From Candidatus Heimdallarchaeum endolithica (lineage in GTDB: Archaea > Asgardarchaeota > Heimdallarchaeia > Heimdallarchaeales > Heimdallarchaeaceae): 64,000 nt of DNA. Positions 42,986 to 54,097 of this stretch are shown here, in pieces. The stretch covers positions 352,001 to 416,000 of the forward strand of contig CP084167.1 in the NCBI GenBank assembly GCA_021513715.1, given 5' to 3'. A program made the translations under genes and the position numbers. The notes under the pieces are model-generated. The model had not been told where the DNA came from, ran no database searches, and worked only from the letters and a program-made list of their open reading frames with translations. The stretch's first letter is position 1. Each line of letters begins with the position of its first letter.

Positions 42986-45900
42986 TTAGTTTCTTTTTCT
43001 TTTCCTTAACAATACAATTGGAATAAGCAATGTAAGAGCTGAAATGTACAACAAGTCCATAGAACCTATTCTTCTAGTTTTATCTTGACCGCCTGTATAA
43101 ATATCAGCACCAGCACTTGATCCTGTAGCAGTAGAAGATCCATAGTCTTGCCAATTACTTGATTCTGCTTCTTGAGAAGAACCATCTAAGGCTTGGAAAA
43201 CTTGTATTGAATCTATTCCTCCTTCTCCTTCTCCTTCTAGTTCGTTTTCAAATCTGCTATCATAAATGATTTCAGCTGCAGGAATGTAACAACCATCAGA
43301 GGTTAGGAATTGCCAATGCATTGTTATTGTTACAGAATCACCAGGATAAAGTGTTATTCCTTCAACTCTAATATAACCCATACCCAAGTAAGTTCCATTA
43401 GAAATACTTCCTTTTGTTGTGGCTTTAGATTGTAATGAAAGCTCTGTTTGGTTATAAAATTGTGTGATAGTTATATGTGTTTCAGCATCTCCTACATTCG
43501 TGATTGAAAGAGTTATTTCTATTTCCCAAGGTCCATCTTCTGGAATAATGATATCTACATTTGTTTCAATATCTAAAACTGGTTGTGGGAAGGCAGGTCT
43601 TCTCTCATTGGTCCTTGGAACTAATAGAGCCCAATCCATGTTAGATAAAACCCATTCATGTGTTTGTGCAGCTCCTTCAAATTCTTCTGTTATATTAGGC
43701 TCCCAGAAATTATAAACTGGAAGAGCTTCTTGTCCATAATCACTGTCAAATTCTACAACAGCATAAACAGGATGTATGCCTAAGAAAGTGTTTGCATCTA
43801 CTTGTACTTCAAAATTGTACTGTGTTCCATTTTCAATTGTTCCTATTTCTTCATAATAGAACAAATCTTGGTCCTCTATTTGCCAATCATTACCCATTCT
43901 ACCATGAAATAGATAAAGTTTAACATTTTCAGCATTAATATTTCCAGTATTCTTAATATAACCAGTTATAGTCACTGGGTCTCCAACTTTGTAACTTGTT
44001 TGATTCAATTCTACGTGAGTATTAAGAACAGCTTCATCATCTGCAAGCTGGAAGTTTATTCCGTTACTAAAACCGTAATACTCAAATCCTTCAGGATCCT
44101 TGTATCTGAACCTAGCTCCTACTGATAACCAAGCATCAGCTTCTTCATCATAGTAACTGATAGGGCGACCATAGGCAAGTTGTCCTGCATCATCAGCAAA
44201 ACCAAGTATCATTTGCATCATCTCTAAATAATTATGCTTTCTTGTAATTAGTTTTACTGCATCAGAACCTTCTATTTCTTCTCCTCTCATAACTCCAAAT
44301 TCCATACTTTGAGAGGTGACATTTTCAAGAGCCCAACTTAAGTGAGCAGTTTCATCAGGAGCTAAACTTGGAATAACTGCTTCAAGGAAATACTCAGTAT
44401 GTTCATCAACTTAATTTTTGTACAATATTTTTGTACGCCAATCTTGCTCTCGGAAAGATCTGTCTAGGAGGGAGATCTAAACACTCATTGAGCCAGAGGA
44501 GAAGGTTGAGCACTCCTCCACCGTGGAAACTGGATGAATAAATCCTCTCACACGGGAAAGTTAAGTCGTATTCAACTTTTCTTTGATTTCTTTCTTTATG
44601 CGCATGTTTTTTTTTATCTTGACACGCCGTGCCAGCTTAGAGAGTAAGTATTTTTCTTAACATCTATCTTTTTTTTTCACTCTTTACATTAATAATGTCT
44701 TTTCACTATTTAAACACCAATTTTTTAATTTGACAAAAATGTACAAAAAAGCTCTTCATGACCTAAAGATCCTACTGTTCTTTCGATATATTCGAAATCT
44801 TGTAAATTAGGATCGAAAAGTGTTTGTTCCTCATAAAGTGTAGCTTGTATTGCTGCTACAGAATAAGCAATACCATTCCATAGCGCTTCTCCATAATCTG
44901 TTATTAGTCCATCCATATCTCCATTCATAATGTATGTTGTTAAATCGATCTGACTCAAGTAATATCCTACAAGAAAGGTTAATATCGTATTTAGACCAGT
45001 TTCAGATTTTAGAGTAGCATTTACAGTTATTGAACCATTTCCAGGAATTTCTAAACCAGTTGTATCAAATTCTTTATAATCATAATTAACTATTTGTTCT
45101 GTTGCACTTTCGTTCCAGAAAGATAATTGACTATCAGTAATATTTCTGTACCATCCATCAAAAACCAAAACAGTTACATTAACATAAAAGTCTTCTACAA
45201 AACCTTCTAAAGAACCACCAAAGTTAATTAATAATGTTGCATTGGTTTCACTGTAAAATTCTTCGTCAATTGTTACATCATCTCTTAATTTGTAGATTAC
45301 AGGACTGTTCTCAATCATATCAATAAAGTCAGGTCCTAATGGATAACTTATTGTTATATTTTCTGCTGTTTCAGTTCCTGAATTAGTTACTTCATAATCC
45401 ATCTGGAGAATTCCATTTTCATTTAATAATTGTTGATCATAATCCATATTTACGCTTACTCTTGGTGAAGAAGCAAGTTCAGCTTGGTTCATAGTGTAAA
45501 CTACTTCAAAATTACCAGTTAAATCACGAACTTTCCAAGGTACTTGCATTATCCAGTCCATTTTTCCTGAAATCTGTGGAGCAACGTTATTAGGTGTTGG
45601 CTCAATAGATAAAGCGTTAATCAAATATGGAAATCTGAATTTAAGAATACTATATTTTACAACACCTAACTTGTTATAGACTTCTAAATCTGAACCGAAT
45701 AAGTTATTAGTTGAAAGTGTATATTCACCATCTACTTCAACAATAGCGTCAGGGTCAACATAGTAAATACCCCTGAAGTAAGTTGAAGAACGAAAATCTT
45801 CTCCTATAAAAACTGCTTTAACTGGAGATTCAGAAACAGCAGTTGTCTCAATAGCTGCAGCAAAACCACTTGTAATGTCCCCCTTAATCTCATCTGTAAG

Positions 45901-46412
45901 TAATTCAATTTGTTCATTAGTTGAACCGCTTGAAAAAACATACAGATAGTTACTCTTTTCTGTTGAAGCTGCACCTGCCCAATGTAATTCTAAATTATAG
46001 TGATCATCAAAAAGTTGTGCAATTCTCAAAGATTGATTAAGACTTCCATCTGTTCCTAAAGAACCATCGATTTCAAGTAAAAGTGTAGCATTATCAGGAG
46101 CTTTGAAAGGTCTTCGTAATAGGTAATCAGCATAAGCTGCTTGGTCGCTTACAATAAAAGCCCAGCTGAGAACATCATCAAATTCGCTAGCTAGAACTTT
46201 TAATGGACTTGAACCTCCAAAAAGATTCAACTTAACAAGAGCAGAACTTTCGATACCAGCTATTATTTTCATTTCTTCAACAAATAGCTCACCTTCTTCT
46301 CCTGTACTTCCAATTGCTGAAGAGGAATATACAAGAGCTTGAGTTGTTGAACTGCTCAAAACTAAAAACATTATTGGTAAAACTACCAAAAAAATGTTGT
46401 TGATTTTTTCAT
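42986..46412 (-). pseudogene. Large acidic cell-surface (S-layer-like, CARDB-type) protein interrupted by a 353-bp element
   Basis: GGAGG plus ATG at 46412, one base short in an A7 run at 46388-46394; removing 44407-44759 joins VGSLGH-EHTEYF in frame with 42986-44305; TM plus RKRKRN tail. Confidence 0.75.
44405..44759. mobile_element. MITE-like non-coding element with paired inverted TTTTTGTAC end motifs and structured GC-rich core
   Basis: TTCAT at both junctions (44402-44406, 44755-44759); T5G motif 8 nt from the AT at each end; several internal stems. Confidence 0.8.
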
Positions 46413-53347: not shown

Positions 53348-54097
53348 TTAACTGAAAAATTCATCATCATCTCTTTCTTGAATGTCTCCTGGTTTGATTA
53401 CTGGCTCAACTTTGTAAACAACTTTTCCTTTCCAAAAATATTCTCCAGTCCGATAGATGGGATTTTTTCTCATATAGGCTAATGTACTTCTAGGGATACC
53501 AAACTTGTTTGAAATTGTACTCATAGTAGCATTATCCTCGAACATTTGAAAGATCTCAATCAATTTTGGTCGCATTTCCTCATCAACAACAAGTTTTCCA
53601 TTTTCATTTTTATAACCTAAAGGAGGTCTTGACATTATCTTCTGTTCTCCAATTCTTCTTTTAATTCCATATTTCCTCTTTTCTCTATATTTTTTGAGTT
53701 CCTCTTCACCTAAAATATCATAGATCCTAGTAACAAGCTGTTCTTGAGACTCTTCTGTTGCTCTAATTTCAACACCAAAACTTCTTAAAATAACAGTAGC
53801 ATAACCTAGCATATCAACTTGTCTTGAAATTCTATCTCTTGTTTGAACCCATACTTCTCTTATTGGGTCACCAGCATTGTTTTTGTTATATGTTCTAATA
53901 AATTCTAACATCTTTTTAAAACCTGGTCTCTCCTCAACATGACTATCTCCACTCACTTCTTCATCAATAAAGGTTTCAATGATATGCCTATACCCAACTG
54001 ATTTTATTTTTTGCCTAATTACTTCTTCTTGGGTACCTAATCCTGATTCTTGATCTGCTGTACTTACTCTTAAGTAACAAATGACATTAATATGCAT
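53348..54097 (-). CDS. Serine recombinase (resolvase catalytic domain plus short recombinase domain)
   Basis: YLRVST.DQ, VSG, RPG, DRISR, PPLGY, NPIY. Confidence 0.88.
   Translation of the reverse strand: MHINVICYLRVSTADQESGLGTQEEVIRQKIKSVGYRHIIETFIDEEVSGDSHVEERPGFKKMLEFIRTYNKNNAGDPIREVWVQTRDRISRQVDMLGYATVILRSFGVEIRATEESQEQLVTRIYDILGEEELKKYREKRKYGIKRRIGEQKIMSRPPLGYKNENGKLVVDEEMRPKLIEIFQMFEDNATMSTISNKFGIPRSTLAYMRKNPIYRTGEYFWKGKVVYKVEPVIKPGDIQERDDDEFFS

Follow-up and report, generated by a model that had tools for sequence, protein, structure and literature searches.

A host gene and the 353-bp element that splits it

The closed genome of Ca. H. endolithica (3.33 Mb, 31% GC) contains a host gene of ~1016 aa, secreted/CARDB-type, that is split by a 353-bp element. 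Coordinates are those of the window, which is the whole 64,000-nucleotide stretch of DNA that was analysed. The main text of the genome description (PMC8813620) mentions neither TnpB nor MITEs nor inverted repeats. The locus is arranged as follows.

42986..44404, minus strand: host gene, 3' half
44385..44404, minus strand: predicted guide, read-through into host DNA, first base G
44405..44437, minus strand: right end, with two GTACAAAAA repeats, 8 bases (the last five tied to the pseudoknot) and core AT
44405..44759, minus strand: whole miniature element, 353 bp plus one AT, with an AT core at both junctions
44707..44714, minus strand: TATA-box-like TTTAAATA, where the parents have the tnpB promoter
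44729..44759, minus strand: left end, with core AT (44758-59), G, 7 free bases and two T-tract/GTACA-type repeats
44760..46389, minus strand: host gene, 5' half; TC, the final bases of this half, together with the core forms the predicted TAM TCAT

A sequence-only reading of the window had proposed that excision restores the host frame (SLGHEHTEY) and an empty site, TTCATGA, that contains CATG. Both the restored frame and the empty site are in the sequence as it was written, and deletion of 353 bp yields a single 1016-aa ORF. Comparison with an uninterrupted orthologue had been advised; the Ca. H. aukensis gene is colinear and gap-free at 86% over 245 nt. Metagenome contigs from three independent studies, aligned at 88% likeness with shorter sides of 255, 67 and 93 letters, join position 44401 to 44755 and skip 353 bp, with 5 bases ambiguous at the junction. 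These contigs make the alternative junction of that reading, a CTT duplication, superfluous. The empty site in three metagenomes indicates that the insertion is polymorphic among strains ~98% alike, and it arose after the divergence from strains ~98% identical.

The end sequences, their paired T5G motifs and the 8-nt distance from AT are in the sequence as first described. The orientation had to be reversed. The end first taken as the left runs on into tnpB elements at three other places and is therefore the right end, which makes minus the functional strand. The tnpB parents carry the left-end motif at the same position. The only constant features of the ends are the AT, the G after AT and a T-tract 7-8 bases inside, and the terminal bases are variable. 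The TATA-box-like TTTAAATA is retained in the parents as well as in the miniatures of two genera, and presumably acts as a promoter.

The element is mobile. A search of the host genome for copies, as had been recommended, returned six that are 98-99% identical (3-7 positions apart), with identical limits in differing flanks and a TC-AT-G empty site as the target of each of these recent insertions. The miniature is thus multi-copy, and the prospect of a single-copy, untranscribed sequence, named beforehand as evidence against the original idea, did not materialise as regards copy number. The host genome holds one further copy at 79% identity plus decayed relics, and aukensis has one copy at 97% identity. 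Another genus has a 345-bp miniature, in three copies and one further metagenome copy, that retains the scaffold, the TATA box and the tnpB-derived hairpin of 44620..44634. In f5, an archaeal family within the class of the host, a separate CATG family has 360-bp miniatures.

Other gene-less elements were also noticed. A second CATG miniature of ~380 bp lies at 193586-193966 of the host genome and at ~17 more places; its RNA region resembles that of relatives' TnpB elements (L127, L128, L133), and a close parent was not seen in the host genome. One copy is directly upstream of the host genome's only Y1 tnpA. Two inverted 380-bp miniatures bracket 5.8 kb with a predicted ATPase gene (host genome 1123642-1129485), possibly a composite transposon. 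Collapsed elements of 33 bp and 66 bp consist of two ends alone (L275:462-495, L253:1500-1533 and L258, in f5 and f1 genomes).

Parent tnpB elements, RNA scaffold and retained hairpin

The search for longer parents, also suggested by the sequence-only reading, identified tnpB-only elements of 1.5-1.6 kb, termed T1, with three intact genes in the host genome (2688068-2689554, 2833125-2834726 and 3216736-3218223). The parents encode TnpB, and the DDE-transposase parent that would have told against the original idea was not borne out. The T1 parents have ~160 nt of the right end in common with the miniature at 77-81% identity. Their TnpB proteins of 445-449 aa score above the NCBIfam TnpB cut-off and have an intact zinc finger and RuvC residues D199/E291/D383 in all three parents, with the RuvC-I motif GVDVG; the gene stops ~50 nt inside the right end. 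T1 was found only in the host's archaeal family and never adjoining a transposase. Two aukensis T1 copies (L054 and L062) carry separately the left and right flanks of a host-genome copy (L067), which is a rearrangement between element copies.

The TnpB element of the window itself (16155-17982) was considered as the parent and rejected: it has other ends, ~26-34% protein identity and no match to the scaffold model. The end grammar that had been described as common to the two elements is indeed shared, but the motifs differ and belong to another family. The sequence-only reading had seen no clear identity between the two RNA regions by eye. This copy belongs to a second CATG family with ~14 copies in the genome and carries a frameshift near 17444. 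Here, too, the right end can pair with an internal loop (ATGATT), and the tnpB gene contains a conserved hairpin with a 3-nt loop ahead of RuvC-I. A further CATG-type family with TnpBs of 415-420 aa is found at 597990-599570 of the host genome and in L131, L141, L142 and L145-L147; it is multi-copy in relatives and its tree neighbour is an IS607-linked TnpB. A quick tree places CATG-type TnpBs in at least three separate groups, one of them adjoining an IS607-linked TnpB.

The common right-end region corresponds to a TnpB guide scaffold (omegaRNA). Its parts are listed here, followed by two further hairpins of the element.

44405..44566, minus strand: omegaRNA scaffold, last 162 nt of the element
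44406-44410, minus strand: pseudoknot partner
44484-93/44442-51, minus strand: P4
44456-78, minus strand: variable stem
44498-44519, minus strand: P3, with the pseudoknot loop at 44505-44509
44521-44555, minus strand: P1
44556..44580, minus strand: miniature-specific hairpin just 5' of the scaffold, the fourth stem of the sequence-only reading
44620..44634, minus strand: hairpin/palindrome TGGCAC-GGC-GTGTCA, from tnpB codons Ala-Arg-Arg-Ala

The interior had been described as GC-rich with four stems. The stems are there, and the GC-rich portion is confined to 44446-44565 (48% vs 27% elsewhere). In the other genus a hairpin of different sequence occupies the place of the 44556-44580 hairpin. 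The structural claim rests on covariation because single-sequence folding is only modestly better than shuffles (z of -1.3 and -1.9). RNAalifold of 20 right ends from two genera and more gave four helices with double-sided changes in 12 of 23 pairs. The pseudoknot that closes at the element end is paired in 99/100 cells with double changes at three positions; the partners are TCAAC/GTTGA here and TCGAC/GTCGA and TAGTC/GACTA in relatives. The 30 G-U cells vs 1 A-C cell fix the strand as minus. Row shuffles never matched the covariation values, to which no probability is attached since the rows are kin. A model built from this alignment retrieved six unseen family members at 130-151 bits, the match in the window being by construction, and no Rfam model matched at gathering or at a useful E-value.

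TnpB guide scaffolds are known to have a terminal pseudoknot of this kind as their core (10.1101/2023.08.09.552727). As in an omegaRNA locus, the structured RNA overlaps the tnpB 3' end and stops at the right end with the terminal pseudoknot. The scaffold and the presence of intact cognate TnpB genes at other loci of the host genome bear out the suggestion that the element carries an RNA module of the TnpB guide type. The scaffold end, read with established TnpB biology, would place the guide at 44385..44404, and the flank DNA at this position differs copy by copy.

The RNA structure could instead be an inherited passenger of a plain MITE that spreads via its ends alone. The parent scaffold overlaps the end, so deletion derivatives would inherit it, and solo ends and decayed relics are common. 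However, comparison of two miniature subfamilies shows a scaffold core that is 93% identical and a middle that is 69% identical, with compensatory changes in the variable stem, which suggests from sequence comparison that selection on the RNA persisted after tnpB loss. The full scaffold is also retained in miniatures of two genera, in the second family here and in family f5, and the TAM-like flank bias described below extends to miniatures. A plain MITE is improbable on this evidence.

The proposal that only the ends and an RNA module had been kept is right as to both, but the element retains in addition the TATA-like box and the tnpB-derived hairpin at 44620..44634. The genome contains the 10-base core of this hairpin at nine places, of which six are in miniatures and three in T1 genes. 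The core GCA CGG CGT GC is identical in 15 loci with its synonymous positions frozen; CGG is the rarest Arg codon (23/410) yet is kept. Both hairpin arms have changed together at two further loci. In the separate CATG family of f5, another hairpin with a 3-nt loop directly follows RuvC-I and is retained in the 360-bp miniatures, and T2/T3 tnpB genes have a 3-nt-loop hairpin just before RuvC-I. An origin of the middle as a decayed tnpB 5' end was discarded, as this match was no better than shuffles and the true source is codons 251-254. One TnpB is described with a regulatory mRNA region (PMC10278001), and no report of an internal tnpB signal retained in miniatures was found in the literature. 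The retention of such a hairpin, seen also in another genus's miniatures and, independently, in another family's, is new and hints at an unreported cis signal within tnpB.

Target preference and the search for a mover

The base before CAT is T in 23/24 T1-type left ends and 10/16 right ends, against 34% in the genome, and in three further CATG families, which have TCAT at the right end itself, T precedes CAT in 1/53 left and 30/65 right flanks; these counts include related copies and are not independent. The flank asymmetry fits TAM-dependent retention and leads to the prediction of TCAT as the TAM of T1-type elements. The filled right junction, TGAT, is one base off TCAT, and the element's own junction would thereby escape cleavage. 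The flanks thus predict family-specific TAMs (TCAT, VCAT) with inherent self-avoidance. Genome-wide, CATG is rarer than expected (6320 observed vs ~9460 from base composition).

AT is present at each junction and a single time in the empty site, an arrangement that fits a 2-bp core, a 2-bp duplication or a blunt cut alike. No mover gene was found in or beside the ~100 element loci examined, a generic scan for elements with CATG ends but different cargo gave none and no autonomous element, and viral contigs were without ends, parents or recombinase relatives. Four shallow contig sets showed no circle junction. An ORF next to an f5 end, considered as a candidate, proved to be no recombinase. A tyrosine recombinase was likewise set aside; the host genome has one match, virus-integrase-like, and the f5 tyrosine-recombinase loci are without CATG-element ends.

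An IS607-type serine transposase that is absent from the assemblies examined is ranked first and favoured tentatively. The ends, with their AT core and inverted subterminal repeats, are nearest to the grammar of IS607, in which a two-base core is combined with subterminal motif arrays (PMC6188088; 10.1101/2023.11.20.567912). IS607, IS1535, ISC1926, CboIStron and ISXfa1 resemble the element in short repeated end motifs, a fixed first flank base and a TAM that separates the empty site from the filled junction, as is predicted here, and they have a two-base core in ends and target such as AT may be. They differ in that the core here is AT in all copies, not GG, and the ends are near mirror images. 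No N-terminal-HTH serine TnpA was detected in the element, the parents or two closed genomes, and the true IS607 of relatives have other ends.

A DDE transposase, for which AT would be an ISL2-like target duplication or TG..CA would be inserted bluntly in CA/TG, is rather unlikely. The inverted subterminal repeats agree with such an enzyme, as do TG..CA in most sister families and precedents in DDE-linked TnpBs with inverted ends (PMC10691335) and TIR-bounded non-autonomous Fanzor2* (10.1101/2023.08.09.552727). In contrast to typical DDE tips, the T1 ends are GA or TA and 6-8 junction-adjacent bases vary freely. The DDE families resident in the genome differ in their ends and have longer duplications, IS630 and ISL2-type DDE models had no match in the host genome, and no autonomous element among the DDE families that were searched shares the terminal bases. 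Unlikely, too, is an unrecognised enzyme; both follow the IS607-type candidate closely.

The elements might parasitise the host's two short chromosomal serine recombinases, a reading we consider quite improbable. This paralogous pair (window 53348-54097 and host genome 316728-317450) has a conserved upstream palindrome. The pair comprises the only PF00239 genes in both closed genomes, with catalytic motifs intact; it is present in 28/30 genomes of the host's archaeal family, which is the T1 range, and serine chemistry yields a 2-bp core. Against this, the pair was not found in f5, where CATG elements abound and some hosts have no resolvase match, and its own palindrome AAGGW-N4-WCCTT (27/36) is in none of the elements. 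Each f5 genome has one strong XerA-like gene, and the serine pair may replace XerA.

An IS200/IS605-type mechanism, in which a Y1 transposase acts on single-stranded DNA and the end palindromes are its hairpins, is very unlikely. Y1 geometry is compatible with the position of TCAT outside the left end and of TGAT inside the right one, and the host genome has one Y1 gene. However, the G after the core is almost fixed, the closed aukensis genome and four f5 hosts have no Y1, orientation shows no bias relative to GC skew (20/48), and the ends of the resident Y1 element are GC-rich hairpins of the ordinary kind.

Kinship with known systems and a proposed mechanism

Gene-less IS200/IS605 derivatives that carry an omegaRNA for use in trans have been described (PMC10055086). 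Like these PATEs (PMC10055086, PMC3119063), the element has no protein gene, both ends, a right-end guide scaffold and a scarless empty site, and requires TnpB and a transposase in trans. It departs from them in that inverted T-tract repeats take the place of Y1 hairpins, AT stands at each junction, the C-AT-G target is symmetric, there is no matching Y1 and a hairpin from inside tnpB is retained. TnpB also occurs between inverted ends with DDE and aCas1 partners (PMC10691335); these systems and Fanzor2* (10.1101/2023.08.09.552727) resemble T1 in placing a TnpB-type nuclease between inverted ends, often with the transposase missing, but T1 is without conserved terminal bases or a clear 4-bp duplication. 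No DDE or aCas1 partner was found here. Neither aCas1 nor solo Cas1 was detected beside tnpB with Pfam models, which a divergent aCas1 could escape; the Cas1 matches are CRISPR-linked, and no solo Cas1 exceeded the cut-off in five f5 hosts. The RuvC-I motif is GVDVG in T1 and DPG in Fanzor relatives. The IS1111 group of IS110 is alike in its subterminal inverted repeats, its structured non-coding end and, if AT is a core, its 2-base core, whereas the RNA here is a TnpB scaffold overlapping tnpB and the host genome has no IS110 (DEDD) recombinase. The element behaves like a guide-bearing PATE, yet belongs to neither the PATEs, IS607, IS1111 nor the known DDE partners.

We conclude that the element is probably a non-autonomous, protein-less derivative of the tnpB-only insertion sequence T1 that would be mobilised and used as a guide by the following steps. 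An enzyme encoded elsewhere would bind the T-tract repeats at both ends, and strand exchange at the common AT would give clean excision and insertion at C-AT-G. The retained promoter would drive a transcript across the scaffold into the flank. T1 TnpB supplied in trans would trim and load this transcript, then cut empty alleles at TCAT plus guide and spare the filled junction TGAT, after which repair from a filled copy would restore the element. Transcription and use by TnpB in trans are deduced here. The tnpB-derived hairpin would be a third cis signal for movement or RNA maturation, and independent miniatures may keep it because such a signal is required.

A broader proposal, which we regard as doubtful, is that the CATG/AT-core elements of Heimdallarchaeia form a transposon class of their own. 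Its mover would be none of Y1, IS607 TnpA or the known DDE partners, and possibly host-encoded; TnpB would have been acquired at least three times, a third cis signal would lie within tnpB, and the miniatures would be stand-alone guide genes homing with a borrowed TnpB.

These elements offer a compact natural test set for whether gene-less elements home with TnpB in trans, and for what mobilises the numerous tnpB-only elements that lack a matching transposase. A site-selective, scarless integrase in the archaea closest to eukaryotes would also bear on the way in which TnpB, like Fanzors, came to be carried by inverted-repeat elements.
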